A stretch of DNA of 24,000 bases from Oscillospiraceae bacterium (GTDB lineage: Bacteria; Bacillota; Clostridia; Oscillospirales; Oscillospiraceae): assembly GCA_016293865.1 (NCBI GenBank), contig JAEDDG010000024.1, positions 1,048-25,047 on the forward strand. Reading direction: 5' to 3'. Below are positions 1 through 13,737 of the stretch, one piece after another. The position numbers were made by a program, and so were the translations under genes. How positions within the stretch are numbered: the first letter of the stretch is position 1; every line of letters starts with the position of its first letter. The notes under the pieces are model-generated. The model made no database searches. It was given only the letters and a program-made list of their open reading frames with translations, and had not been told where the DNA came from.

Positions 1-60
1 CTGGGATTTTTTTAAGCGGTGAACGGCCGTCCAATCTCAAAGAAAACGGAGGAAAACAAG

Positions 61-1476
61 ATGAGAAAGATTAACATTGCAGACATTACGCTCAGCGAAT
101 CCGCTGCCGGCAAGGATCTGACTCTCAGCTTCAAGGAAAAGCTGGAGATTGCCAAGCATCTTGATAAAATGCGGGTGGACGTGCTGGAACTGCCGCAGCT
201 GGAGAATTTGAAGACAGATGCGCTTCTGGTGCGGACCATTGCCACCACTGTGCAGAACTGCGCCGTATCCATTCAGGTGGGTATGACTGAAGCAGGCGCT
301 GACAACGCCTGGGCCGCCGTGATGAAGGCGCGCCGGCCGCGGCTGCGTGTGGCCCTGCCGGTGAGCACGGTGCAGATGGAATATCTGTGCCACAAAAAGC
401 CCGCGGCCATGCTGGAACTGATTTCCGTTATGGTGAAAAAATGCGTCTCCCTGTGCGCGGATGTGGATTTTACCGCGGAGGACGCAACACGCGCCGAGCC
501 GGAATTCCTGAAAGCGGCGATTGAAGCGGCGGTGAAGGCCGGCGCGACAACAGTGACTGTCAGTGACACGGCGGGCATTATGATGCCGGAGGAATTTGCA
601 CAGTTCATTTCCGATCTGCGCGCTACAGTTCCTGAGCTGGAAAATGTATCACTGGCGGTCAAGTGCGCCAATGAGCTGAAAATGTCCGTGGCTTGCGCCA
701 TGACTGCCGTCAAAGCCGGCGCCTGCGAGATCAAGGCATGCGCTTCCGGGGATACGCTGCCGACGCTCTCGGCTCTGAGCCGGATTTTCCGCCTGCGGGG
801 CGATTCTGTGGGCGTCTGCTGCAATCTGAATTCCATGGAGATCCAGCGCCTGACCAAGCAGATTGAGTGGATTACCCGGGCGAAAAAGTCGGCCACCACG
901 CCGTTTGACACCGGCATCAGCGCCGGCAGCGGCGCGGAGTTTTCGCTCAGCAGCAATGACAGCCTGGACGAGGTGGCCAAGGCTGTGGCGCAGCTGGGCT
1001 ATGACCTGACCGAGGATGATATTGCCAAGGTTTATGAGTCTTTTTCCCACATTGCGTCCAAGAAAGCGGTTTCCTCAAAGGAGCTTGAGGCAATTGTGGC
1101 CAGCGTTGCGCTGCAGGTTCCGCCCACGTACCGGCTGAAGAGCTTTGTCATCAACAGCGGCAACCTGATTTCCGCCACAGCCAATATTTCCCTTGACAAG
1201 GGCGACCGGATGATGCAGGGCGTCAGCGTCGGCGACGGTCCTATTGACGCGGCGTTCCTTGCCATTGAAAAAATTATCGGAACCCATTATGACCTGGACG
1301 ATTTCCAGATCCAGGCCGTTACCGAGGGGCGCGAGGCCGTGGGCTCCGCTGTTGTCAAGCTGCGGTCGTCAACCGGAAAGCTTTATTCCGGCCGCGGAAT
1401 TTCCACGGATATCATCGGCGCGTCCATCCGCGCGTACATCAACGCCCTGAACAAGATCGTTTATGAGGAGAACTGA
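61..1476 (+). CDS. LeuA/HMGL-like TIM-barrel protein with a LeuA-type C-terminal regulatory domain; catalytic motifs degenerate (probable pseudoenzyme or regulatory subunit)
   Basis: ORF 19..1476. GGAGGA at 45-50 favours ATG 61 (MRKINIADITL...). The N-terminus is collinear with 2-isopropylmalate synthase, but the expected TLRDGEQ reads TLSESAA and the HxH metal-site region reads AVKCANELK. The C-terminal GDGPIDAAFLAIEKI...GRGISTDIIGASIRAYINALNKI resembles the LeuA dimerisation/allosteric domain. Confidence 0.75.
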   Translation: MRKINIADITLSESAAGKDLTLSFKEKLEIAKHLDKMRVDVLELPQLENLKTDALLVRTIATTVQNCAVSIQVGMTEAGADNAWAAVMKARRPRLRVALPVSTVQMEYLCHKKPAAMLELISVMVKKCVSLCADVDFTAEDATRAEPEFLKAAIEAAVKAGATTVTVSDTAGIMMPEEFAQFISDLRATVPELENVSLAVKCANELKMSVACAMTAVKAGACEIKACASGDTLPTLSALSRIFRLRGDSVGVCCNLNSMEIQRLTKQIEWITRAKKSATTPFDTGISAGSGAEFSLSSNDSLDEVAKAVAQLGYDLTEDDIAKVYESFSHIASKKAVSSKELEAIVASVALQVPPTYRLKSFVINSGNLISATANISLDKGDRMMQGVSVGDGPIDAAFLAIEKIIGTHYDLDDFQIQAVTEGREAVGSAVVKLRSSTGKLYSGRGISTDIIGASIRAYINALNKIVYEEN

Positions 1477-1478
1477 CC

Positions 1479-3995
1479 ATGAAACTTTCATTTTCCATTA
1501 AAGGCTGGAACGGATACAGCTGGGATGAGTTCTGCGCCCTGGCAAAGGATATGGATATTCAGGGCATTGAGCTTTACAATATTCACAATACTGCGTTTAC
1601 AGAGAAGGGCGGCCCCTTTGACGAGCATACGGCGGCGGCCACTCTGCGGGAAATGCATGCGCACAATCTGCAGATCCCGTGCATCGATTCTGTCTGCGAC
1701 ATCGCCGACGCTGCGCAGTATGAACACAACTGCACGGAAATTGACGCCTGTATCAAAACGGCGGCGAGCTTTAAAGTTCCCTATGTCCGCGTACACGCCA
1801 CCGGCGGCGACGATGTGACGGAAACCGTGATGAACTGCCTGCGCAGGGCTGTTGCAGCCGCGGAAGCGGCGGGTGTCACTGTGCTGATTGAAACGGTGGG
1901 GCTCTTTGCCGACACCGGCCGGCTGAGAAATGTCCTGAATGATTTTGCCTGCGACAATCTCGGCGCGCTGTGGGATATGCAGCATCCCTACCGCATCTGC
2001 GGCGAAAAGCCGGACACGACAATCCAGAATCTGGGTGCCTATGTCCGCCATGTGCATGTGAAGGACTCTGAAGTTGTGGACGGCCAGGTGGAATACCGCC
2101 TGATGGGCGAGGGCACGCTGCCTATGCAGGATATGATGAACGCCCTGCGCAGCGTGAACTACAACGGCTTCATTTCCCTGGAATGGGATCCCGCCTGGAT
2201 GCCTGAAATCGACGATATTGAGGTTATCCTGCCGCATTTCGTGAATTACATGAACCGGTTCAGCGATCCCTCCCGGTCGCGCTCCGTTCTGTATGACAAC
2301 CATACGCATACAGGCAAATATGTCTGGAAAAAGGAACTGATCATCGAGAAGACATTCTCTCAGGTACTGGACAGAATGGTGGAGGAATTCCCGGATCAGT
2401 ACGCCTTCAAATATACGACGCTGGATTACACCCGGACCTATGCCGAGTTCAGGGACGATGTGGACGAGTTTGCCCGCACGCTGATCGCGCTGGGCGTCAA
2501 GCCCGGCGACAAGGTGTCCATCTGGGCGACCAACATTCCCCAGTGGTATATCACCTTCTGGGCGACAACGAAGATCGGCGCGATCCTGGTGACTGTCAAT
2601 ACGGCGTACAAGGTGCATGAGGCCGAATATCTGTTCCGTCAGTCCGACACCCATACAATCGTGATGATTGACGGCTACAGGGATTCCAACTACTCTGAAA
2701 TCATCGCGGAGCTGTGCCCGGAGCTGGAGAATACCGTGCCCGGCCAGCCGTTGCATGCAAAGCGCCTGCCGTTCCTGCGCAACGTGATCACCGTCGGGTT
2801 CAGACAGAAGGGCTGCCTGACCTGGGAGGAATCCCTGCTGCTGGCAAACCGCGTGCCCCAGGAAGAGGTGGATCGCAGGGCGGCTGCGGTGGACATTCAC
2901 GACGTGTGCAACATGCAGTATACGTCGGGTACCACGGGCTTCCCCAAGGGTGTTATGCTGACCCATTACAACGTCGTCAACAACGGCAAGGCCATCGGCG
3001 ACTGCATGGATCTGTCCACGGCAGACCGGATGATGATCCAGGTGCCCATGTTCCACTGCTTCGGCATGGTGCTGGCCATGACGGCATCCATGACGCACGG
3101 GGCGACGCTGCATCCGATTCCGTATTTCTCACCGAAATCTTCGCTGGCCTGCATCAACAACGAGCATGTGACGGCCTTCCACGGCGTGCCGACCATGTTT
3201 ATTGCCATGCTCGAGCATGAAGATTTTGAAAAGACTGATTTTTCCTACATGCGTACGGGTATTATGGCCGGTTCCCCCTGTCCCATCAAGGTGATGGAGG
3301 ACGTTGTGGAAAAGATGCACATGCCGGAAATCTGCATTACGTACGGGCAGACGGAGGCATCGCCCGCCACGACCATGAGCAAGACCACAGACTCCATCGA
3401 AACCCGTGTCAATACCGTGGGCAGCCCCATCTTCGGCGTCGAGTGCAAAATTATCAATCCGGAGACAGGCGAGGAAGTGCCGGACAACGTGGACGGCGAG
3501 TTCTGCGCCCGGGGCTACAACATCATGAAGGGATATTACAAGATGCCCATCGCCACGGCGGAAGCCATTGACAAGGACGGCTGGCTCCACTCCGGAGATC
3601 TGCTGCGCCGCCTGCCGGACGGCACGTTCAAGGTTACCGGCCGCCTGAAGGATATGATTATCCGCGGCGGCGAGAACATCTACCCCAAGGAGATCGAGGA
3701 CTTCCTCTACACCCATCCCAAGGTTTCGGACGTTCAGGTCATCGGCGTGCCGGATGAGCAGTACGGCGAGGAAATCATGGCCTGCGTGATTGTGAAGGAA
3801 GGGGAAACGCTGACCGAAAGCGAGCTGCGGGAATATTGCCGCACGCGCATTGCCAAGCATAAGGTCCCGCGCTACTTCGATTTTGTGGATTCCTTCCCCA
3901 TGAATGCGGCCGGAAAGATCCTCAAATACAAAATGCGCGAACAGGCGGTGGACAAGCTGGGCCTGAAGAAGGCGGCGTCGGTTGTGACGGCCTGA
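1479..3995 (+). CDS. Fusion protein: N-terminal xylose-isomerase-like (sugar phosphate isomerase/epimerase, AP-endonuclease-2 type) TIM barrel plus C-terminal AMP-forming acyl-CoA ligase (FadD/ACSF2-like)
   Basis: One 838-aa ORF. Its ATG lies 2 nt after the stop of the upstream gene. Residues about 1-270 carry TIM-barrel metal-ligand-like positions (LIETVG, WDMQHP, HVHVKD, SLEWD). Residues about 300-838 carry adenylate-forming motifs YTSGTTGFPKGVMLTH, YGQTE, GWLHSGD and GRLKDMIIRGGENIYPKEIE. Confidence 0.85.
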   Translation: MKLSFSIKGWNGYSWDEFCALAKDMDIQGIELYNIHNTAFTEKGGPFDEHTAAATLREMHAHNLQIPCIDSVCDIADAAQYEHNCTEIDACIKTAASFKVPYVRVHATGGDDVTETVMNCLRRAVAAAEAAGVTVLIETVGLFADTGRLRNVLNDFACDNLGALWDMQHPYRICGEKPDTTIQNLGAYVRHVHVKDSEVVDGQVEYRLMGEGTLPMQDMMNALRSVNYNGFISLEWDPAWMPEIDDIEVILPHFVNYMNRFSDPSRSRSVLYDNHTHTGKYVWKKELIIEKTFSQVLDRMVEEFPDQYAFKYTTLDYTRTYAEFRDDVDEFARTLIALGVKPGDKVSIWATNIPQWYITFWATTKIGAILVTVNTAYKVHEAEYLFRQSDTHTIVMIDGYRDSNYSEIIAELCPELENTVPGQPLHAKRLPFLRNVITVGFRQKGCLTWEESLLLANRVPQEEVDRRAAAVDIHDVCNMQYTSGTTGFPKGVMLTHYNVVNNGKAIGDCMDLSTADRMMIQVPMFHCFGMVLAMTASMTHGATLHPIPYFSPKSSLACINNEHVTAFHGVPTMFIAMLEHEDFEKTDFSYMRTGIMAGSPCPIKVMEDVVEKMHMPEICITYGQTEASPATTMSKTTDSIETRVNTVGSPIFGVECKIINPETGEEVPDNVDGEFCARGYNIMKGYYKMPIATAEAIDKDGWLHSGDLLRRLPDGTFKVTGRLKDMIIRGGENIYPKEIEDFLYTHPKVSDVQVIGVPDEQYGEEIMACVIVKEGETLTESELREYCRTRIAKHKVPRYFDFVDSFPMNAAGKILKYKMREQAVDKLGLKKAASVVTA

Positions 3996-4066: not shown

Positions 4067-4096
4067 TTGACACGGACGAAAAAATAAGAGTAAAAT
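4067..4096 (+). promoter_or_regulatory. Sigma-A-like promoter of T-box leader 1
   Basis: TTGACA (4067-4072), 18-nt spacer, TAAAAT (4091-4096), about 25 nt upstream of the Stem I K-turn. Confidence 0.6.
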
Positions 4097-4119
4097 GACA
4101 TCAATTGAATCATTGTTAA

Positions 4120-4404
4120 AGGCTGTGACGAAGACGGAAGAGCGATTTCACATCCAGAGAGCCGGGGACGGTGTGAGCCCGGCGGTGCAGATCCTCATAT
4201 TCCCATCCCTTCCGAGCTGTTGGCCCCAAAGTCCGTTCCGGATGAGTAGACGCCTTCCGTGATTGCTGCGTGAATGCATAGGGCTTGACTGAGCCTGAGA
4301 GCGGTGCCGGATAACCGGCGCAATTTGAGTGGTACCGCGGGTTTATCTTGTTTGTAAACTCGTCTCAAGGATTTCCGTATCTTTGAGACGAGTTTTTTGT
4401 TTTT
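4120..4404 (+). promoter_or_regulatory. T-box riboswitch leader 1 (tRNA-sensing transcription attenuator)
   Basis: K-turn GGC-UGU-GA (4121-4128) opposite GA-GCU (4214-4218). AGAGA bulge at 4156-4160. Distal hairpin gccggg/cccggc with loop GACGGUGUGAG (4161-4183). GAGUAG and CCGUGA (F-box-like) at about 4242-4262. T-box sequence AAUUUGAGUGGUACCGCGG at 4322-4340. UUGAG (4325-4329) can pair with CUCAA (4364-4368) in the 5' arm of the terminator, giving an antiterminator alternative. Confidence 0.85.
4357..4404 (+). terminator. Intrinsic terminator of T-box leader 1
   Basis: actcgtctcaa (4358-4368) pairs with ttgagacgagt (4383-4393), followed by TTTTTGTTTTT. It sits immediately before RBS AAGGAGG (4405-4411). 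Confidence 0.85.
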
Positions 4405-4417
4405 AAGGAGGTAAAAG

Positions 4418-6685
4418 ATGATGAGCAGCTACGTTGACAACAGCATCCTTGAGGTGGCGCACCGCATTCGTGAAATGCGCGAGATCGCGGGCTTTTCCGT
4501 GGAAGAGATGGCCGCCCAGACCAATGTGACGGCTGATATGTACCGGACGCTGGAGGCAGGCGGGACGGACCTTCCGTTCACATTTATCCACAAGTGCGCG
4601 CTGGCCTTCGGCATTGAGATTACCGACCTGATTGAAGGCAAAAGCGCCAAGCTTACCAGCTATACAGTGACCCGCAAAGGTGAGGGACGTGTGACAGCCC
4701 AGGAGGACGGGATTGAAATCCTTGACCTTGCGCCGCAGTTCCGCAAAAAAATTGCAGAGCCGTACTGGGTCCGCTATGAGTATTCTGAAGAGCTGCAGAC
4801 AAAGCCCATTCATCTGACCACACACTCCGGCCAGGAGTTTGACTATATCATCAAGGGCCGCCTGAAGGTTCAGGTCGGCAATCACATCGAAGTTCTCAAT
4901 GAGGGCGATTCGATTTACTACAACAGCTCCACGCCGCACGGCATGATTGCCGTCAACGGTGAGCCCTGCGTATTCTGCGCGGTTGTTCTGCCGGGCGAGG
5001 ATGCGGCGGAGAGCGAGCACAAAAACAGCATCATCCATCCCCGGACGGCGGAGCCCATGATCTGCGACAAGTTTGTGCGCTGCACAGAGGATGAGGAAGG
5101 CCATCTGCAGAAGATCGAGTTTACGAATGAGGATCAGTTCAACTTCGGCTTCGACGTGGTGGATGCGCTGGCGGATAAGTATCCCGATAAGCTTGCCATG
5201 CTGCACATTGCAGAGGATATGACCGAGCGCCGCTTCAGCTTTGCGGACATGAAGCGCGCCAGCGCCCAGACGGCCAACTATTTCACTTCACTGGGCATCA
5301 AAAAGGGCGACCGGGTCATGCTGGTGCTCAAGCGGCACTATCAGTTCTGGTTCTCCATGCTGGCGCTGCATAAGATGGGCGCCATCCCGATCCCGGCCAC
5401 AAACCAGCTTCTGGAGCACGATTTTGAGTACCGTTTCGATGCGGCCGGCATCTCGGCAATCGTCTGCACGGCTGACGGAGACGCTGCGCACCAGGCGGAG
5501 CTGGCCATGGAAAAATGCCCGCAGGTGACTGTCCGCGTGCTCGTAGGCGGGAAGCGGGAAGGCTGGCACGATTTTGACAGCGAGTACAAGCTTTTCTCCG
5601 GCTCTTATCCGCGTACGGAAGAGACGCCCTGCGGCGACGACATCATGTTCATGCTCTTTACTTCCGGCACCACAGGGTACCCGAAAATTGCGGAGCACAG
5701 CTACAAGTATCCGCTCGGCCACTATGTGACCGCCAAGTACTGGCACTGTGTGGAGCGGGGCGGCCTGCACCTGACCATTTCCGATACCGGCTGGGGCAAG
5801 GCGCTGTGGGGCAAGCTTTACGGCCAGTGGCTGGCAGAAGGCGCCGTATTCGTCTATGACTTTGACCGGTTCGATGCCCATAAGATTCTGCCCATGTTTG
5901 CAAAATACAACATTACAACCTTCTGTGCGCCGCCCACCATGCTGCGCATGATGGTCAAGGAGGATCTGTCACAGTACGATCTGAGCTCCGTCACCCATAT
6001 GACGACGGCAGGCGAGGCGCTGAATCCCGAGGTCTTCCGCCAGTTCGAGGCGGCCACCGGCCTGCAGATCATGGAAGGTTTCGGCCAGACGGAGACGACG
6101 CTCCTGATCGGCAACCTGATCGGCGATACACCCAAGCTGGGATCCATGGGCAAGCCCTCGCCCCAGTATGACGTGGTGATTGTGGACGCACAGGGCAAGG
6201 AAGTCCCGGTCGGTGAAAACGGCGAAATCTGCGTGCGTACAGACAAGGGCGTGCCCTGCGGCCTGTTCAAGGGCTATTACAACGCGCCGGATAAAACGGC
6301 CGAGGTCTGGCACGACGGCCTGTACCACACCGGCGACGTGGCCTGGAAGGATGAGGACGGCTATCTGTGGTACGTCAGCCGCATCGACGACGTGATCAAA
6401 TCCTCCGGCTACCGCATCGGGCCGTTTGAGATTGAGAGCGTGATCATGGAGCTTCCGTATGTTCTGGAGTGCGGCGTTTCTGCGGCTCCGGATCCGGTGC
6501 GCGGCCAGGTGGTCAAGGCGTCCATCGTTCTGACTAAGGGAACCGAGGGGACCGAGGAGCTGAAAAAAGAGATCCAGGATTATGTGAAAAAGCATACCGC
6601 ACCGTACAAATATCCGCGTATTGTGGTCTTCCGTGACAGTCTGCCCAAGTCCATCAGCGGCAAGATCCAGCGCAACAAGCTGTAA
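4418..6685 (+). CDS. XRE-family HTH + cupin + medium-chain acyl-CoA synthetase (MACS/ACSM-like, AMP-forming) fusion, paralog 1
   Basis: 755-aa ORF with AAGGAGG 6 nt upstream. HTH at about aa 10-70 (FSVEEMAAQTNVTADMYRTLEAG). Cupin at about aa 130-190 (HSGQEFDYIIKG...STPHGMIAV). Ligase motifs FTSGTTGYPK, GFGQTET, YHTGDVA, RIDDVIKSSGYRIGPFEIES, SGKIQRNKL. Confidence 0.9.
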   Translation: MMSSYVDNSILEVAHRIREMREIAGFSVEEMAAQTNVTADMYRTLEAGGTDLPFTFIHKCALAFGIEITDLIEGKSAKLTSYTVTRKGEGRVTAQEDGIEILDLAPQFRKKIAEPYWVRYEYSEELQTKPIHLTTHSGQEFDYIIKGRLKVQVGNHIEVLNEGDSIYYNSSTPHGMIAVNGEPCVFCAVVLPGEDAAESEHKNSIIHPRTAEPMICDKFVRCTEDEEGHLQKIEFTNEDQFNFGFDVVDALADKYPDKLAMLHIAEDMTERRFSFADMKRASAQTANYFTSLGIKKGDRVMLVLKRHYQFWFSMLALHKMGAIPIPATNQLLEHDFEYRFDAAGISAIVCTADGDAAHQAELAMEKCPQVTVRVLVGGKREGWHDFDSEYKLFSGSYPRTEETPCGDDIMFMLFTSGTTGYPKIAEHSYKYPLGHYVTAKYWHCVERGGLHLTISDTGWGKALWGKLYGQWLAEGAVFVYDFDRFDAHKILPMFAKYNITTFCAPPTMLRMMVKEDLSQYDLSSVTHMTTAGEALNPEVFRQFEAATGLQIMEGFGQTETTLLIGNLIGDTPKLGSMGKPSPQYDVVIVDAQGKEVPVGENGEICVRTDKGVPCGLFKGYYNAPDKTAEVWHDGLYHTGDVAWKDEDGYLWYVSRIDDVIKSSGYRIGPFEIESVIMELPYVLECGVSAAPDPVRGQVVKASIVLTKGTEGTEELKKEIQDYVKKHTAPYKYPRIVVFRDSLPKSISGKIQRNKL

Positions 6686-6787: not shown

Positions 6788-6803
6788 TTACTCAATTCAG
6801 AAA

Positions 6804-7089
6804 AGCTTTGACGGAGAGTGCCCTGGCAGGCCGTGTTTCAGAGAATTGGCGTCTGGTGCGAGCCAATAATACGCAGCCAGCGGTTTGTAGCTCCCGAGCT
6901 GGAAGGAAGAAAGCGCGTGCGTGAGTAGAACCTTCCCGTGACTGCTGCGTAAAGGCATAGGGCTTGACAGAGTCTGAGAGTGGCGCTGGTTTCCGGCGCA
7001 ATTTGAGTGGTACCGCGGGTCTTTATATGAACGTATAAAACTCGTCTCAAAGATTACAACATCTTTGGGGCGGGTTTTTGTTTTACCGC
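6804..7089 (+). promoter_or_regulatory. T-box riboswitch leader 2 (tRNA-sensing transcription attenuator)
   Basis: K-turn AGC-UUU-GA (6804-6811) opposite GA-GCU (6896-6900). AGAGA at 6840-6844. Distal hairpin attggc/gccaat with loop GUCUGGUGCGA. GAGUAG and CCGUGA elements at about 6922-6941. A 28-nt block ccggcgcaatttgagtggtaccgcgggt (6993-7020) is identical to 4315-4342. Terminator ctcgtctcaaagat / atctttggggcggg (7041-7074, several G-U pairs) followed by TTTTTGTTTT. Confidence 0.85.
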
Positions 7090-7110
7090 CCCGGAAAACG
7101 GAGGAAAATT

Positions 7111-9378
7111 ATGGTTGCTGTGAACACAAAAATTCAGGAAATTGCCGGCCGTATCCGCGAGCTGCGGGAGGTTATGGGTCATACGGTGGGCGATATGGCA
7201 GCTCTGACCGGGATCTCCGAGGAAGAGTATGCGGCCTGTGAAAGCGGCCAGCGTGATCTGAGCTTTGCATTTCTGTACCTTTGCGCCCAGGCGTTCCGCG
7301 TGGACGTGACGGACATCATTCAGGGCCAGAGCCCCAAACTGAAAAGCTATTCCATCACCCGCGCGGGCGAGGGACAGCTGATCAACCGCGCCCATGATAT
7401 GGAATATTTCAACCTGGCCGGCTCTTTCCGCAAGAGAATTGCGGATCCTCTGTATGTCAACATCACCTATGTGGAAGGCGCCGAGCGCCGTCCCATTGAA
7501 GTGACCACCCATGAGGGCCAGGAGTGCGACATTGTGCTCAAGGGCACAATGAAGCTGCAGGTCGGCGAGCATGTGGAAATCCTGCACGAGGGCGACTGCG
7601 CCTATTATGACAGCTCCACGCCGCACGGCATGATTGCAGTCGGCGGCAAGGACTGCGTTTTTTACGCAATTGTTCTGACGCCGAACAAGGACGAGGAGAG
7701 CAAAAGCGCCGACGTGGAAACAAGATCCACGGAGAAGGACAACACCATTCGCGTCTGGAACGAGTTTGTGGAGCCTGTTGAGGATGAGAAGGGCTGCTTG
7801 AAAAGCATTTCCTTCAAGAACACGGACCGCTTCAATTTTGCCTTTGACGTGGTCGACAGGCTGGGACAGGAAAAACCGGACAAGACGGCCATCCTGCATG
7901 TGAGCAGGGATCATACGGCACGACGCATTACCTTCGGCGAGATGAAGCGCGCCAGCGCCCAGACGGCCAACTATTTCAAGTCCCTGGGCATCAAAAAAGG
8001 CGACCGGGTCATGCTGATTCTCAAGCGTCATTATCAGTACTGGTTCTGCGTCAACGCCCTGCACAAAATCGGCGCCATTGCGATTCCGGCCATGTGCCAG
8101 CTGCTGGACCATGACATTGAATACCGGTTCAATGCCGCCGGCGTGTCCACCATTATCTGCACGGCGGACGGCGATACCGCGCATCAGGTGGAACTGGCGT
8201 GTGCCCGCTGCCCGCAGGTTGTCAATAAGATCCTTGTGGGCGGAAAGCGGGAAGGCTGGCGTGATTATGACGAGGAATACCAGCTGTTTTCCGGCCGGTT
8301 CCCCCGCACGGCGGATACGCCCTGCGGCGACGACCTGATGCTTATGTACTTCACTTCCGGCACGACCGGCTACCCGAAAATGGCGGCGCACAGCTACAAG
8401 TATCCGCTGGGCCATTTTGTAACGGCGAAATACTGGCAGTGCGTGAATCCCGAAGGACTGCATCTGACCATTTCCGATACCGGCTGGGCCAAGGCCGGCT
8501 GGGGCAAGATTTACGGCCAGTGGCTGTGCGAAGGCGGTCTGTTTGTCTATGACTTCGACCGGTTCGACGCCCATGATATCCTGCCCATGTTTGCCCAGTA
8601 TCACATTACAACCTTCTGCGCGCCGCCCACCATGCTGCGCCTGATGGTCAAAGAGGATATCAGCAAGTACGATCTGAGCTCGATCGAGCACATGACGACG
8701 GCCGGCGAGGCGCTGAATCCGGAGGTCTTCCGCCAGTTCAAGGCGGCAACGGGCCTGAACATTATGGAGGGCTTCGGCCAGACGGAGACGACGGTGATCG
8801 TCGGCAATCTGGAGGGCACGAAGGTCCGTATCGGGTCCATGGGCAAGGCGAATCCCCAGTATGATGTGGACATCGTCGATCCCCAGGGGAACAGCGTGCC
8901 CGTGGGCGAAAACGGCGAGATCGTGATCCGCACAGACAAGGGCGCGCCCTGCGGCCTGCTGAAGGAATACTACAAGGCGCCGGACAAAACGCTGGAGACC
9001 TGGCATGACGGCATGTATCACACAGGCGACGTGGCCTGGCGCGATGAGGACGGTTATTTCTGGTATGTGGGCCGGATTGACGATGTGATCAAATCTTCCG
9101 GCTACCGTATCGGCCCGTTCGAAATCGAGAGCGTGATCATGGAGCTGCCGTACGTTCTGGAGTGCGGCGTGTCCGCGGCGCCGGATCCGGTCCGCGGCCA
9201 GGTGGTCAAGGCGTCCATCGTCCTTACAAAGGGAACCGAGGGAACCGAAGAGCTGAAAAAAGAGATTCAGGCTTATGTCAAGGAGCATACGGCTCCGTAT
9301 AAATATCCGCGCATTGTTGTGTTCCTGGACTCCCTGCCCAAGACCACCAGCGGCAAGATCCAGCGCAACAAGCTGTAA
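7111..9378 (+). CDS. XRE-family HTH + cupin + medium-chain acyl-CoA synthetase fusion, paralog 2
   Basis: The ORF track starts at 7078, but that start lies inside the T-box terminator U-tract. ATG 7111 is preceded by GGAGGA and gives 755 aa (MVAVNTKIQEIAGRIRELRE...), the same length and architecture as paralog 1. The last 101 aa differ from paralog 1 at 5 positions. Confidence 0.9.
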   Translation: MVAVNTKIQEIAGRIRELREVMGHTVGDMAALTGISEEEYAACESGQRDLSFAFLYLCAQAFRVDVTDIIQGQSPKLKSYSITRAGEGQLINRAHDMEYFNLAGSFRKRIADPLYVNITYVEGAERRPIEVTTHEGQECDIVLKGTMKLQVGEHVEILHEGDCAYYDSSTPHGMIAVGGKDCVFYAIVLTPNKDEESKSADVETRSTEKDNTIRVWNEFVEPVEDEKGCLKSISFKNTDRFNFAFDVVDRLGQEKPDKTAILHVSRDHTARRITFGEMKRASAQTANYFKSLGIKKGDRVMLILKRHYQYWFCVNALHKIGAIAIPAMCQLLDHDIEYRFNAAGVSTIICTADGDTAHQVELACARCPQVVNKILVGGKREGWRDYDEEYQLFSGRFPRTADTPCGDDLMLMYFTSGTTGYPKMAAHSYKYPLGHFVTAKYWQCVNPEGLHLTISDTGWAKAGWGKIYGQWLCEGGLFVYDFDRFDAHDILPMFAQYHITTFCAPPTMLRLMVKEDISKYDLSSIEHMTTAGEALNPEVFRQFKAATGLNIMEGFGQTETTVIVGNLEGTKVRIGSMGKANPQYDVDIVDPQGNSVPVGENGEIVIRTDKGAPCGLLKEYYKAPDKTLETWHDGMYHTGDVAWRDEDGYFWYVGRIDDVIKSSGYRIGPFEIESVIMELPYVLECGVSAAPDPVRGQVVKASIVLTKGTEGTEELKKEIQAYVKEHTAPYKYPRIVVFLDSLPKTTSGKIQRNKL

Positions 9379-9387
9379 GGAGAACTT

Positions 9388-10071
9388 ATGCTTACAAAAC
9401 GCATTTCCCTGTTTGCCGGCCATTACGGCAGCGGAAAGACGAATATCGCCGTGAACTGCGCGCTGTGCGCCAGGGAAGCGGGGCAGAACGTGACCATTGC
9501 CGACCTGGATATTGTCAACCCGTATTTCCGGACAAAGGACAGCGAGGCGCTTTTGAAGCGTCATGGGATCGGCCTTGTCTGCTCCGAATATGCCAATACA
9601 AATCTGGATATCCCGGCACTGCCCAAGGAACTGTATGCCATATTGGCACGCAGGGATTCAGCGGTTATAATGGATATCGGCGGCGATGACCGCGGCGCCG
9701 TGGCGCTGGGCCGCTATACGCCGATGATTCTGGAAGAAAACGATTACGACATGTTTTTTGTGGCCAATTTTTACCGGCCGCTGACCCGTACGCCGGAAGA
9801 AATGATCCAGATCATGCGTGAGATTGAAACGGCTTCCGGCCTGCCGTTTACGGCAATCATCAACAACTCGAACCTTGCCGGCGACACACAGGCAGACACA
9901 GTGACAGACACTGTGGGGAAGGCGCGGGAACTGTCCCGGATAACGGGGCTGCCCATACGCGCCACCTGTGTGGAGCAGAGGCTTTTCGAAAGCCTGAAGG
10001 ATCAGATACCGGATCTTGTTCCGCTGCATCTTCAGGAAAAATATTTTGACATTGTAAATGGAGGGATCTAA
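9388..10071 (+). CDS. P-loop NTPase (SIMIBI/MinD-ParA-CooC-like), function unknown
   Basis: Walker A AGHYGSGKTN near the N-terminus and a Walker-B-like VIMDIGGDD. RBS AAGGAGA overlaps the stop of the upstream ligase gene. Its stop lies 1 nt before the ferredoxin-subunit start. Confidence 0.75.
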   Translation: MLTKRISLFAGHYGSGKTNIAVNCALCAREAGQNVTIADLDIVNPYFRTKDSEALLKRHGIGLVCSEYANTNLDIPALPKELYAILARRDSAVIMDIGGDDRGAVALGRYTPMILEENDYDMFFVANFYRPLTRTPEEMIQIMREIETASGLPFTAIINNSNLAGDTQADTVTDTVGKARELSRITGLPIRATCVEQRLFESLKDQIPDLVPLHLQEKYFDIVNGGI

Positions 10072-10072
10072 A

Positions 10073-10279
10073 ATGGCGAAGCTGACATTTAAAACCGACC
10101 TGTGCAAGGGATGCGGACTGTGCGTCAACGCATGTCCGAAGGGCGTGCTTGAAATTGCGCGCGACAAAATCAACCTCAAGGGGTATTCTCCCGTGGTTGC
10201 CAGGGATATGGATAAATGCATCGGTTGTGCATTCTGCGCAACCATGTGTCCCGACTGCATTATTACAGTAGAAAAGTGA
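10073..10279 (+). CDS. 2-oxoacid:ferredoxin oxidoreductase delta subunit (2x[4Fe-4S] ferredoxin)
   Basis: Two CxxCxxCxxxCP motifs (CKGCGLCVNACP, CIGCAFCATMCP). ATG 10073 (MAKLTFK...) is preceded by GGAGGG. The ORF-track start 10058 overlaps the previous gene. Confidence 0.85.
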   Translation: MAKLTFKTDLCKGCGLCVNACPKGVLEIARDKINLKGYSPVVARDMDKCIGCAFCATMCPDCIITVEK

Positions 10280-10289
10280 GGTGCCGATT

Positions 10290-11351
10290 ATGGCAGAAAA
10301 AGTATTGATGAAGGGCAATGAAGCCATTGCCGAGGCAGCCATCCGCGCCGGCTGCCGTCACTATTTCGGATATCCCATCACGCCGCAGACAGAAATCGCG
10401 GCATATATGGCCAAGAAAATGCCGAAAATCGGCGGAACATTTCTCCAGGCGGAAAGTGAAATTGCCGCCATTAATATGGTCTACGGCGTATCCTCTGCCG
10501 GCTTCCGGGTCATGACCTCGTCATCCAGCCCCGGTGTCAGCCTGAAGAGCGAGGGCCTGTCCTATCTGGCGGGCTGCGACCTGCCGGCGCTTGTGGTCAA
10601 TGTCCAGCGCGGCGGCCCCGGCCTCGGCGGCATTCAGCCCTCCCAGTCCGATTATTTTATGGCCACCAAGGGCGGCGGACACGGCGATTTCCGCATGATC
10701 GTTCTGGCGCCTGCTTCTGTTCAGGAAATGGCCGGCCTGACCTTCAAGGCTTTTGAACTGGCCGATCAGTACAGAATGACCGCCATGCTGCTGGCTGACG
10801 GAACTCTGGGTCAGATGATGGAGGCCATCACGTTCCCGGAGACTGAGGTCAGGACATTTGACAAGCCCTGGGCCGTCACCGGCACGCAGATGAAGCGCCC
10901 CCACAACATCATCAATTCTCTGGCGCTCGTACCGGATGTGCTGGAAAAGATGAATTTTGACCGGTATAAGAAATACGCGGAAATCGAGGAAAAGGAGCCC
11001 ATGTACGAATCGTACATGATGGATGACGCGGAAATCTGTGTCGTCGCCTTCGGTATTGCCTCCCGCGTGTCCAAGAATGCAATTATGGCCGCAAGGGCTG
11101 AGGGCATCAAGGTGGGCATGATCCGGCCCATCACGCTCTGGCCGTTCCCCACAAAGGCGCTGGCAGAAGCGGCGCAGAAGTGCAGGGCGTTTGTCTCTGT
11201 TGAACTCAACATGGGCCAGATGATTGAAGATGTCCGGCTGGCTACCGGCTGCGCGCGGCCTGTTTCCCTGTGCAACAGAGCCGGCGGTATGATCCCCACG
11301 CCGGATCATGTCCTTGCATCCATTCGGGAAGCCAACAAGGGAGGTAACTGA
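10290..11351 (+). CDS. 2-oxoacid:ferredoxin oxidoreductase alpha subunit (KorA/VorB-type)
   Basis: MAEKVLMKGNEAIAEAAIRAGCRHYFGYPITPQTEI is the typical OFOR alpha N-terminus. GAGGTG sits 6 nt upstream of ATG 10290. Confidence 0.9.
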   Translation: MAEKVLMKGNEAIAEAAIRAGCRHYFGYPITPQTEIAAYMAKKMPKIGGTFLQAESEIAAINMVYGVSSAGFRVMTSSSSPGVSLKSEGLSYLAGCDLPALVVNVQRGGPGLGGIQPSQSDYFMATKGGGHGDFRMIVLAPASVQEMAGLTFKAFELADQYRMTAMLLADGTLGQMMEAITFPETEVRTFDKPWAVTGTQMKRPHNIINSLALVPDVLEKMNFDRYKKYAEIEEKEPMYESYMMDDAEICVVAFGIASRVSKNAIMAARAEGIKVGMIRPITLWPFPTKALAEAAQKCRAFVSVELNMGQMIEDVRLATGCARPVSLCNRAGGMIPTPDHVLASIREANKGGN

Positions 11352-11353
11352 TT

Positions 11354-12112
11354 ATGGTCGTTTTTGAGAAACCTCATGCCCTCACCGATGCACCGCTGCA
11401 TTACTGCCCCGGCTGCACGCACGGCATTGTTCACCGCCTTGTGGCGGAAGCCATCGACGCCCTCGGAATTGAGGGGAAGACCATCGGCGTGGCGCCGGTC
11501 GGCTGCTCCGTCATGGCCTATAATTATTTTTCATGCGATATGATTGAAGCGGCGCACGGCCGCGCACCGGCTGTGGCAACCGGCGTAAAGCGGGCGCTGC
11601 CGGACAACATTGTCTTTACATATCAGGGCGACGGCGATCTGGCGTCCATCGGCACGGCGGAGACCGTTCACGCTGCAGCGAGAAACGAGAACATTACGAT
11701 TATCTTCATCAACAACGCCATTTACGGCATGACCGGCGGCCAGATGGCGCCCACGTCGCTGCCCGGCCAGGTGACGCAGACTTCGCCGTACGGCCGCGAT
11801 CCGCAGCTGTGCGGTTTCCCGGTTAAAATCTGCGAAATGCTTTCTCAGCTGGAAGGTCCGGAGTATATTGAGCGCGTGGCGGTCAACAACGTCAAGAACA
11901 TCAAAAAAGCCGGCAAAGCCATTCTGAAAGCTTTTAAGAACCAGACGGAGAACAAGGGCTTCTCGCTGATTGAAGTTGTCTCCACCTGTCCCACCAACTG
12001 GGGTATGACGCCGCAGGACGCGATGAAGTGGGTGGATGAAAAAATGATTCCCTATTACCCGCTGGGCGTTTACAAAGACAGAAGCGCGGAAAAAGCAGAG
12101 GAGGGGAAATAA
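11354..12112 (+). CDS. 2-oxoacid:ferredoxin oxidoreductase beta subunit (TPP-binding)
   Basis: CPGCTHG cysteine motif and TPP motif YQGDGDLASIG...NNAIYGMTGGQ. Tightly packed against the alpha and gamma genes. Confidence 0.9.
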   Translation: MVVFEKPHALTDAPLHYCPGCTHGIVHRLVAEAIDALGIEGKTIGVAPVGCSVMAYNYFSCDMIEAAHGRAPAVATGVKRALPDNIVFTYQGDGDLASIGTAETVHAAARNENITIIFINNAIYGMTGGQMAPTSLPGQVTQTSPYGRDPQLCGFPVKICEMLSQLEGPEYIERVAVNNVKNIKKAGKAILKAFKNQTENKGFSLIEVVSTCPTNWGMTPQDAMKWVDEKMIPYYPLGVYKDRSAEKAEEGK

Positions 12113-12645
12113 TGGCCACTTCACAGATTCTGATTGCGGGTTTCGGCGGACAGGGCGTCCTTTTCGCCGGGAAGTTTTTGGCCTACAAGGCCCTGACTGA
12201 GAATAAGCAGCTGAGCTGGCTGCCGTCCTACGGCCCGGAAATGCGCGGCGGCACGGCCAACTGCAGCGTGATTATCAGCGACGATCCGGTTGGTTCTCCC
12301 ATCATTACCACGCCGGACTGCCTGATTGCCATGAACCGGCCGTCTCTTGACAAATATGTGGACGCAGTGGCGCCCGGCGGCATGATCCTTGTGGATTCGT
12401 CCCTGATCAGCGTCGAGGTCGAACGCACGGATGTCCGCACCTTCTATATTCCGGCAACCAAAATGGCAAATGACGCGGGCTTCGCGACGCTTGCGAACAT
12501 GGTTCTTGTGGGCAAACTGATCAAGGAATCCGGCGTTGTTTCTTTTGAAAATAACAAAGAGACTTTTGAAAAGTTCATTCCGGCAAAGAAAGCAAATCTG
12601 ATTGAGATCAACTGCCAGGCCCTGCAGACCGGGTATGATTATTAA
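12112..12645 (+). CDS. 2-oxoacid:ferredoxin oxidoreductase gamma subunit
   Basis: N-terminal [16 protein letters not shown] and [19 protein letters not shown] are typical of OFOR gamma subunits. TAATG overlap with the beta subunit gene. Confidence 0.9.
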
Positions 12646-12663: not shown

Positions 12664-13737
12664 ATGCTTGACATTAAGATCACCAAAACCACACAGCCCA
12701 AGCAAAAGCCCGCGCCGGGTCAGAAACTCGGCTTCGGCCATATTTTCACCGACCATATGTTCATCATGAACTATACGGAAGGAAAAGGCTGGCATGATCC
12801 GCGGATCGTTCCGTTCCAGAATCTGAGCCTGTCTCCCGCGGCGATGGTTTTTCACTACGGTCAGGAAATGTTCGAAGGCCTGAAGGCCTATAAGAATTCC
12901 GACGGCGAAGTTTTCCTTTTCCGCCCGGATATGAACGCCAAGCGCACCAATTCTTCCAATGAGCGTCTGTGTATCCCGCAGCTGCCGGAAGAGGATTTTG
13001 TCCAGGCTGTCAGAACGGTTGTGGATGTGGACCGCGACTGGGTCCCGACGGATCCCGGCACGTCCCTGTATATCCGTCCGTTCATCATCGCAACGGATGA
13101 GTTCCTGGGTGTTGCGCCGTCCAAGACGTATCTGTTCATGGTCATTCTGTCACCCAGCGGCGCTTATTATGAAAGCGGACTGGAGCCTGTGGGCATCTGG
13201 ATTGAGGATGAGTATGTCCGTGCGGTCCGCGGCGGCATGGGCTTTGCCAAAACCGGCGGCAACTATGCGGCCAGCCTGATCGGCCAGGTGAAGGCGCACA
13301 ACGACGGTTATTCCCAGGTTCTGTGGCTGGACGGTGTGGAGCGCAAGTACGTTGAGGAAGTCGGCTCCATGAATATTTTCTTCAAAATTGCCGGCAAAGT
13401 GGTTACGCCCATGCTCAACGGCAGCATCCTGCCGGGCATTACCCGCAACTCTGTCATTACCCTGTGCAAAGAGTGGGGCTATGAGGTTGAGGAACGGAAG
13501 GTTTCTGCTGAAGAGCTGATTCAGGCGCATGCAGACGGCACGCTGGAAGAGGTTTTCGGCACCGGTACTGCAGCCGTCATTTCTCCTGTCGGCAAGCTGC
13601 GCTATAAGGACGATGTGATGACGATCCAGGACGGCAGGACCGGCGAACTGAGCCACCGTCTCTATGATACCATTACCGGCATTCAGCTGGGCAAGCTGCC
13701 GGACACGCACGGCTGGCGTGTAAAAGTCGGCGAATAA
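12664..13737 (+). CDS. ilvE: Branched-chain amino acid aminotransferase (class IV, long form)
   Basis: 357 aa. Motifs FGHIFTDHMF, YGQEMFEGLKAY, RAVRGGMGFAKTGGNYAASL and ILPGITR match long-form IlvE (YbgE/YwaA type). RBS AAGGAAAGGA upstream. Confidence 0.9.
   Translation: MLDIKITKTTQPKQKPAPGQKLGFGHIFTDHMFIMNYTEGKGWHDPRIVPFQNLSLSPAAMVFHYGQEMFEGLKAYKNSDGEVFLFRPDMNAKRTNSSNERLCIPQLPEEDFVQAVRTVVDVDRDWVPTDPGTSLYIRPFIIATDEFLGVAPSKTYLFMVILSPSGAYYESGLEPVGIWIEDEYVRAVRGGMGFAKTGGNYAASLIGQVKAHNDGYSQVLWLDGVERKYVEEVGSMNIFFKIAGKVVTPMLNGSILPGITRNSVITLCKEWGYEVEERKVSAEELIQAHADGTLEEVFGTGTAAVISPVGKLRYKDDVMTIQDGRTGELSHRLYDTITGIQLGKLPDTHGWRVKVGE

Follow-up and report, generated by a model that had tools for sequence, protein, structure and literature searches.

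Isoleucine T-box riboswitches with an AUC specifier are of the textbook kind. In the T-box database TBDB, the '+0' frame comprises nucleotides 2–4 from the 3' end of the specifier bulge, and AUC is the specifier of 99% of the Ile T-boxes (PMC7778990). In glycine T-boxes without a Stem II, a purine after the codon stacks under the codon–anticodon duplex; in the Stem II-containing ileS T-boxes, the base after the codon swings away and the S-turn of Stem II supports the duplex (PMC7583486).

Here, we analysed a stretch of 24,000 nucleotides from an Oscillospiraceae bacterium (the window; assembly GCA_016293865.1, contig JAEDDG010000024.1, positions 1,048 to 25,047). One of its leaders (leader 1) is, judging by its sequence, in all likelihood a T-box riboswitch that attenuates transcription and recognizes tRNA-Ile(GAU). 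We computed its sequence elements and codon register, the invariance of AUC, the covariation of its helices and the association of the specifier with the gene family, and we infer tRNA binding, antitermination and the substrate of the encoded enzyme. The features of the leader and its gene are as follows, in window coordinates.

4067–4096, + strand: promoter-like site (TTGACA, 18 nt, TAAAAT; 11/12 consensus matches, 0.2 expected from shuffles)
about 4103–4405, + strand: leader 1, putative transcription-attenuating T-box with AUC specifier
4121–4218, + strand: Stem I (RF00230 cmscan alignment)
U4124–A4128 (5' strand) and C4213–A4215 (3' strand), + strand: Stem I K-turn (cmscan alignment)
G4121–C4123 with G4216–U4218, + strand: Stem I C-stem (cmscan alignment; pair 4121/4218 covaries)
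4130–4133 with 4209–4212, + strand: basal helix GAAG/CUUC (covariation in relatives)
4134–4135, + strand: specifier loop, 5' side, AC (AC in 96/104 leaders; no AGUA S-turn motif)
4136–4139 with 4200–4203, + strand: upper helix GGAA/UUCC (covariation and minimum free energy fold)
4156–4160, + strand: Stem I AG bulge AGAGA (cmscan alignment)
about 4167–4177, + strand: Stem I distal loop (cmscan alignment)
4197–4199, + strand: 3-nt AUA bulge above the upper helix, 3' strand (unpaired in the minimum free energy fold)
4204–4208, + strand: specifier loop, 3' side, C-AUC-C (flank counts from 104 leaders)
4205–4207, + strand: specifier AUC (Ile), complement of anticodon GAU (104/104 leaders; Rfam specifier columns)
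4219–4321, + strand: region of Stem II (AGUAG 4246–4250), Stem IIA/B and Stem III (cmscan, model positions about 105–185)
4324–4369, + strand: antiterminator; T-box bulge of 7 nt, UGGUACC, at 4330–4336, with UGGU at 4330–4333 (predicted fold of 4322–4372)
4356–4405, + strand: intrinsic terminator, a 17-bp stem (4356–4395) plus U tract (−27.2 kcal/mol, z-score −4.8)
4405–4411, + strand: ribosome-binding site AAGGAGG (sequence)
4418–6685, + strand: regulated gene of 755 amino acids, HTH + cupin + short branched-chain acyl-CoA ligase (Pfam; start codon at 4418)

The base of Stem I carries a K-turn, whose strands read UGUGA (4124–4128) and GA (4214–4215), and the codon lies one nucleotide above the basal helix. 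Further up, AGAGA and a distal T-loop provide the platform motifs for the tRNA elbow, and a 7-nt antiterminator bulge starting with UGGN is followed, just before the gene, by a competing terminator. The predicted antiterminator and terminator are mutually exclusive, as the 5' arm of the latter overlaps the 3' arm of the former and 4356–4369 are common to both. The part from Stem II to Stem III is the least certain, since the alignment marks several of the Stem II pairs as non-canonical. GAAG, CUUC, AUC, C4208, CCC (4202–4204), UUC (4200–4202), GGA (4136–4138) and UGGU all lie where the original prediction had placed them. Stem I of leader 1 appeared without any difference in three DNA sequencing runs of gut samples. 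The only RNA run consisted of a few short contigs (leader 2, described below, and a piece of the first gene), which were uninformative on transcript start, termination and level.

A cmscan search of the window with the T-box model RF00230 aligned all 219 model positions to 4116–4370 (56.7 bits, E 4e-10), a full-length match that scores below the gathering score of 93. At the gathering threshold, RF00230 had no match anywhere in the window, and its leaders surfaced only with E-value thresholds. The shortfall of leader 1 is due largely to the deleted Stem I S-turn and to mismatches in Stem II. In this alignment the specifier columns are filled by AUC, the 'purine' column by C4208 and the basal helix by CUUC, so that the model arrives at the same triplet as the original prediction, for which a structural alignment to RF00230 had been proposed as a check. 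In the loop, posterior probabilities are low and no residues of leader 1 fill the S-turn columns that the model has for Stem I; because of this low alignment confidence, the covariance model alone cannot settle the register. We read by hand the 14 T-boxes that, besides leader 1, make up the 15 matches in the genome. In 13 of these 14, the codon is followed by one nucleotide, then five nucleotides and a GAGC-like K-turn strand, and this spacing rule yields AUC in leader 1. The codons of these 13 match their genes: UAC precedes tyrS, GUC valS, ACC thrS, UUC pheS, GCC alaS, CUG leuB, and UGG both a trpB-like gene and the gene for indolepyruvate:ferredoxin oxidoreductase (IOR). Application of the TBDB '+0' frame to leader 1 gives exactly 4205–4207.

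To compare orthologous leaders, we used the protein encoded at 4418–6685 to fetch relatives from 200 genomes of the same family and from a species-level genome collection. The named records with leaders belong to uncultured Oscillospirales from gut and rumen and bear labels such as Acutalibacteraceae, Oscillospiraceae and Ruminococcaceae. The K-turn and the complementarity of the two basal-helix strands were the sole anchors for each upstream leader. AUC occupied the specifier register in every one of 104 distinct Stem I sequences from orthologues, an Ile codon thus being kept in the +0 frame throughout; as the 104 leaders are homologues, this count shows constraint and not independent origins. 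The base 5' of the codon (4204) was C in 68 leaders and U in 36, and the base 3' of it (4208) was A in 59, C in 38, G in 7 and U in none. The lack of U fits the pairing of a U with A4134, which would close the loop. These counts make a C after the codon a common state in the clade. The original prediction was thus right that a C stands at 4208 in place of the usual purine, but this neighbour, found in 38/104 leaders, is not atypical among the relatives of leader 1.

Other elements were similarly constrained. UGGU was present in all 104 leaders, within a bulge reading UGGUACC in 103 and UGGUUCC in one; AGAGA (4156–4160) was invariant in 29 aligned leaders, and nearly all of them showed the distal-loop GGUG motif. 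The specifier, K-turn, AGAGA, UGGUACC bulge and terminator are kept across about 100 species, whose proteins are only 65–74% identical to the one encoded behind leader 1. Three orthologous ligase genes (L069, L070 and L116) had no T-box upstream, yet they are among the closest ligase orthologues by identity (72–74%). Two of them, L069 and L070, come from Peptococcaceae UBA7702 and an AnMBR Clostridiales MAG; in both, the apparent end of another open reading frame reaches the ligase gene.

The helices on either side of the codon delimit the specifier loop. The basal helix was 100% paired in the 29 aligned leaders, and compensatory changes to GAGG/CCUC (four times) and AAAG/CUUU (twice) occurred among the 104. 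In the C-stem, the pair 4121/4218 was GC in 12, AU in 9, GU in 5 and UA in 3 of the 29 leaders. Above the codon, the same 29 leaders had nearly invariant G4136–C4203 and G4137–C4202 pairs, followed by a pair 4138–4201 that was UA in 14, AU in 8 and CG in 6, and a pair 4139–4200 that was CG in 16, AU in 3, GU in 2, GC and UG in one each, and unpaired in 6. Across all 104 leaders, these four upper-helix pairs form in 95, 99, 94 and 71, respectively. The minimum free energy fold of leader 1 alone contains the same helix and leaves AUA unpaired; at the AUA site, the aligned leaders have a bulge of 2–4 nucleotides that is mostly A-rich. With this covarying GGAA/UUCC helix directly above, the specifier loop proper is a small 2 × 5 loop in which A4134 and C4135 face C4204-AUC-C4208. 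The original prediction had assigned a 12-nt strand, AUAUUCCCAUCC, to the 3' side of the loop: its C-AUC-C part is indeed unpaired, but UUCC (4200–4203) pairs with GGAA, and AUA forms a separate bulge.

This loop lacks an S-turn (loop E), as its 5' strand is only AC and Stem I contains no AGUA/GAA motif pair in the loop. Judging by the aligned leaders, this loop of Stem I accepts a pyrimidine as the base 3' of the codon. As a Stem II region with AGUAG (4246–4250) is present, a weaker need for a purine at this position is plausible in leader 1, by analogy with the Stem II-containing ileS T-boxes. With its missing S-turn and tolerated pyrimidine, the compact loop is a minor structural oddity among T-boxes.

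Many relatives carry two tandem copies of the leader and its fused ligase gene. In the window, the second copy and the genes behind it that concern us here are:

6799–7078: leader 2, Val (GUA-G) paralogue of leader 1 (RF00230 match at 6799–7052, 87.2 bits)
7111–9378: twin ligase behind leader 2
10281–12645: VOR-type 2-oxoacid:ferredoxin oxidoreductase
12664–13737: IlvE

The terminator of leader 2 (7037–7078) overlaps TTG 7078, the start of the longest open reading frame; the more likely start of the second ligase is ATG 7111, behind GGAGG (7100–7104). In a protein tree (a quick IQ-TREE run on the first 420 residues), a single branch (SH-aLRT 100) separated 29 genes with AUC leaders from 15 with GUA or GUC leaders, and shuffling the labels 500 times never gave equal clustering. 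The specifier thus tracks the gene family, as the original prediction had anticipated for orthologous leaders, and its reading of AUC (Ile) in the register set by the K-turn is borne out by the 104 leaders, the Rfam specifier columns and this perfect covariation. At the 90% level, eight positions separate the full-length proteins of the Ile class from those of the Val class. Seven class-separating positions lie in the HTH–cupin module, within residues 55–111 (T55A, A77P, T93I, E96A, I99M, I101Y and K111R), which suggests that this module is adapted to each class and perhaps senses a ligand. In the ligase, residue 460 is Gly in 29/29 Ile-class and Ala in 15/15 Val-class proteins. It lies just after the Trp of a GWGK motif that aligns with the GWGK of Methanosarcina acetivorans Macs (3ETC), and this Trp is likely the counterpart of Macs Trp259, which is critical for acyl-substrate binding in an enzyme that prefers 2-methylbutyrate (PMC10455477). 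Ala in place of Gly adds one methyl to the enzyme where the acid would have one carbon less, as expected of the pair 2-methylbutyrate and isobutyrate. The Ile and Val leader–ligase pairs, AUC with Gly460 and GUA or GUC with Ala, amount to a matched natural experiment.

The antiterminator bulge bears on the identity of the tRNA through its discriminator base. The UGGN rule works in this genome: U73, present in both tRNA-Thr, matches the UGGA of the thrS leader. The original prediction correctly held that UGGU calls for A73, but the match is uninformative among the Ile, Pro and Phe readings: A73 is shared by a tRNA-Ile(GAU) of the same family, by the Pro, Val and Leu tRNAs of the genome and by tRNA-Phe of relatives, and UGGU therefore cannot choose among them. 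A tRNA-Ile(GAU) was not found among the 28 tRNAs of the assembly or the 33 retrieved from the relative G130, and an approximate tRNA-Ile pattern had no match in five relatives; its absence from the assembly is probably explained by a location within unassembled rRNA operons. One tRNA-Ile(GAU) with A73 did occur in another genome of the family, G115, where no T-box is obvious at the ligase gene. ARAGORN called a tRNA-Met(CAU) just upstream of the Leu leader described below (G000:C4:394-470); it has a poor acceptor end without CCA, which almost every other tRNA of the genome possesses, and may be a false call.

Might a frame next to AUC be read, instead of it or besides it? Within the loop, a shift by +1 gives UCC, UCA or UCG, which encode Ser in every leader since U and C are invariant, and a shift by −1 gives CAU or UAU (His or Tyr). 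Alternative frames have been seen experimentally once, in a dual-specificity T-box of one studied system (PMC7778990). The +1 triplet, however, would abut the helix without any unpaired 3' base and would leave the invariant A4205 unexplained. All four tRNA-Ser of the genome have G73, against the invariant UGGU bulge. The −1 triplet changes its amino acid, being CAU in 68 leaders and UAU in 36. Moreover, the homologous Val leaders share the architecture and have UAG or UAA in the +1 frame, which leaves +0 as the only frame that can be functional. We consider a role for either neighbouring frame very unlikely.

A decayed or non-functional T-box, with the gene controlled otherwise, for instance by its own HTH–cupin module, would be in keeping with the score of 56.7 bits against a gathering score of 93, the missing S-turn, the pyrimidine after the codon, the non-canonical pairs of Stem II and the three orthologous genes without a T-box. 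Against this, the functional elements are conserved in about 100 species and the helices show compensatory changes, which leaves decay exceedingly unlikely.

The original prediction had also offered CCC (Pro) as an alternative, with A4205 as the purine after the codon and with GGA (4136–4138) paired to UCC (4206–4208) as an extension of the basal helix. CCY does stand at 4202–4204 in 95/104 leaders, A always comes next, and the A73 of the genome's tRNA-Pro is compatible with UGGU. The pairing that this reading requires is nonetheless not kept in relatives: the pair between G4136 and 4208 forms in 43/104 leaders and that between 4138 and U4206 in 25/104, without compensatory change, and in the 29 aligned leaders these two variable pairs hold in only 15 and 8. 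Both C residues are instead accounted for by the invariant GG of a helix whose next two pairs covary. Nine leaders have CUU, CAU, UUU or CAC at 4202–4204, the Val paralogues have unrelated triplets at the same place and the operon is without a proline gene; the probability of a Pro specifier is negligible. Virtually no chance remains for UUC (Phe; 4200–4202), the third triplet named in the original prediction and tied there to an arylacetate ligase in an IOR-type route: although leader 1 contains UUC and tRNA-Phe of relatives has A73, UUC occupies this place in only 10/104 leaders, its bases pair with G4137–A4139 inside the covarying helix, the adjoining oxidoreductase is VorB-type and the aminotransferase is IlvE, and the genome's true IOR lies on another contig behind its own Trp (UGG) T-box.

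With AUC as the Ile specifier, leader 1 could work as follows. AUC, held in the loop between the K-turn-anchored GAAG/CUUC helix and GGAA/UUCC, would pair with the anticodon, and the Stem I platform of AGAGA and distal loop would bind the tRNA elbow. If the tRNA-Ile is uncharged, its free ACCA end, including A73, would pair with UGGU at 4330–4333. This pairing would stabilize the antiterminator over the terminator stem at 4356–4395, and RNA polymerase would read into the gene at 4418. Uncharged tRNA-Ile would in this way switch on the activation of 2-methylbutyrate by the HTH–cupin–acyl-CoA ligase, and the VOR-type oxidoreductase, by reductive carboxylation, and IlvE, by transamination, would turn the ligase product into isoleucine.

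Several features of the genome are relevant to this proposed supply of isoleucine. The best NCBIfam match of the ligase is MbcS (421 bits, below the cut-off of 850), whose Staphylococcus aureus member is selective for 2-methylbutyrate and isobutyrate (PMC10026030), and its closest solved structure is 3ETC, M. acetivorans Macs (616.7 bits); by these relationships, the ligase most probably activates 2-methylbutyrate. Downstream of it follow the Val leader with the twin ligase, a small P-loop protein, the VorB-type 2-oxoacid:ferredoxin oxidoreductase, IlvE and CysK, of which VorB, IlvE and CysK score above curated NCBIfam cut-offs. Searches of the 96%-complete genome did not find ilvC (best match 24.7 bits) or ilvD (no match), and the same searches succeeded in 14/14 control genomes. 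As neither gene is detectable, the ligase gene probably feeds 2-methylbutyrate into isoleucine synthesis. The genome's own ileS, on contig C27, has no T-box. A promoter-like site (TTGACA, 17 nt, TAAAAT; 11/12 matches) lies at 10046–10074, just before the VOR genes, so that expression of VOR and IlvE may not depend on the Val leader; such independence would let the Ile-controlled ligase work with plentiful valine.

The neighbourhood contains a further T-box. Just upstream of window position 1 (G000:C4:798-1035), a third leader of 104.7 bits has the specifier CUC followed by A (Leu) and precedes a LeuA-like open reading frame and a fusion of TIM-barrel and acyl-CoA ligase (window 19–3995), which makes three successive leaders, for Leu, Ile and Val. 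In orthologues of this Leu leader, the specifier is CUG or CUC, followed by C, C or G. The leuB gene, on contig C22, is behind a Leu (CUG) T-box. The IOR alpha gene is preceded by the Trp T-box at G000:C6:21659-21899 (minus strand), in which UGG is followed by U, another case of a non-purine after the codon, and in which the bulge starts with UGGC; here, too, the tRNA of a particular amino acid controls a 2-oxoacid oxidoreductase.

Only the specifier shows directly which amino acid such a switch serves. With Ile at leader 1, Val at its twin and Leu upstream, three uncharacterised acyl-CoA ligases are each assigned one branched-chain amino acid, and a genome without detectable ilvC and ilvD gains candidate genes and a candidate regulator for a reductive-carboxylation route from 2-methylbutyrate to isoleucine. 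Our full-text literature searches found no paper in which these ligases, or reductive carboxylation, are tied to a T-box. New for this locus are the firm assignment of the specifier, with Pro, Phe, Ser and His/Tyr rejected as readings, the compact loop backed by covariation and the freedom of A, C or G after the codon within the clade.

We also compared leader 1 with leader 2 and with described T-boxes. Leader 2 resembles leader 1 in its architecture, its nearly identical 3' half, its compact loop and the same type of fused ligase behind it. It differs in its specifier, GUA or GUC, in its basal helix GGAG/CUCC, in the purine that usually follows the codon and in the ligase, which has Ala where the Ile-class enzyme has Gly460. 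In the loop, the Val leaders have AG opposite N-GUA-N, whereas leader 1 has AC opposite C-AUC-C. The balance tips slightly towards a view in which leaders 1 and 2 form a structurally distinct T-box subclass that is widespread in gut and rumen Oscillospirales: a plain helix would replace the Stem I S-turn, the codon would be presented in a minimal 2 × 5 loop, the purine would be dispensable (A, C or G, but never U), and after tandem duplication the switch would have been re-aimed from Ile to Val essentially via the first codon base. If so, codon presentation would rest on Stem II and not on a Stem I S-turn plus purine stack, and the Ile and Val leaders would amount to a natural specifier-swap series.

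T-boxes with overlapping frames, known from the one studied system (PMC7778990), share with leader 1 a loop in which more than one triplet is readable; in leader 1, by contrast, one frame is conserved as amino acid and sensible in the paralogue, with no sign of dual reading. The actinobacterial ileS T-boxes (Nocardia and Mycobacterium; PDB 6UFG and others) likewise read tRNA-Ile with AUC. They are translational and have a short Stem I with the specifier in its terminal loop, whereas leader 1 appears transcriptional and has a long Stem I with the full platform. In these actinobacterial T-boxes Stem II, and not stacking of a 3' purine, is the main support of the codon–anticodon duplex (PMC7583486); analogous support from Stem II may explain why a non-purine is tolerated in leader 1. 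Leader 1 also resembles the Ile transcriptional T-boxes of Bacillota (ileS and ilv-leu type; RF00230; TBDB), with which it shares the K-turn base, AUC in the +0 frame, the platform of AGAGA and distal loop, a Stem II with AGUA, a Stem III, UGGU for A73 and the competing terminator and antiterminator. In contrast to them, it has a 2 × 5 loop without the AGUA/GAA S-turn, a C after the codon (A, C or G in its clade) and a score below the Rfam cut-off. Its target is also of another kind: the Ile T-boxes of Bacillota precede a tRNA synthetase, a classical biosynthesis gene or a transporter, and leader 1 precedes an acyl-CoA ligase.
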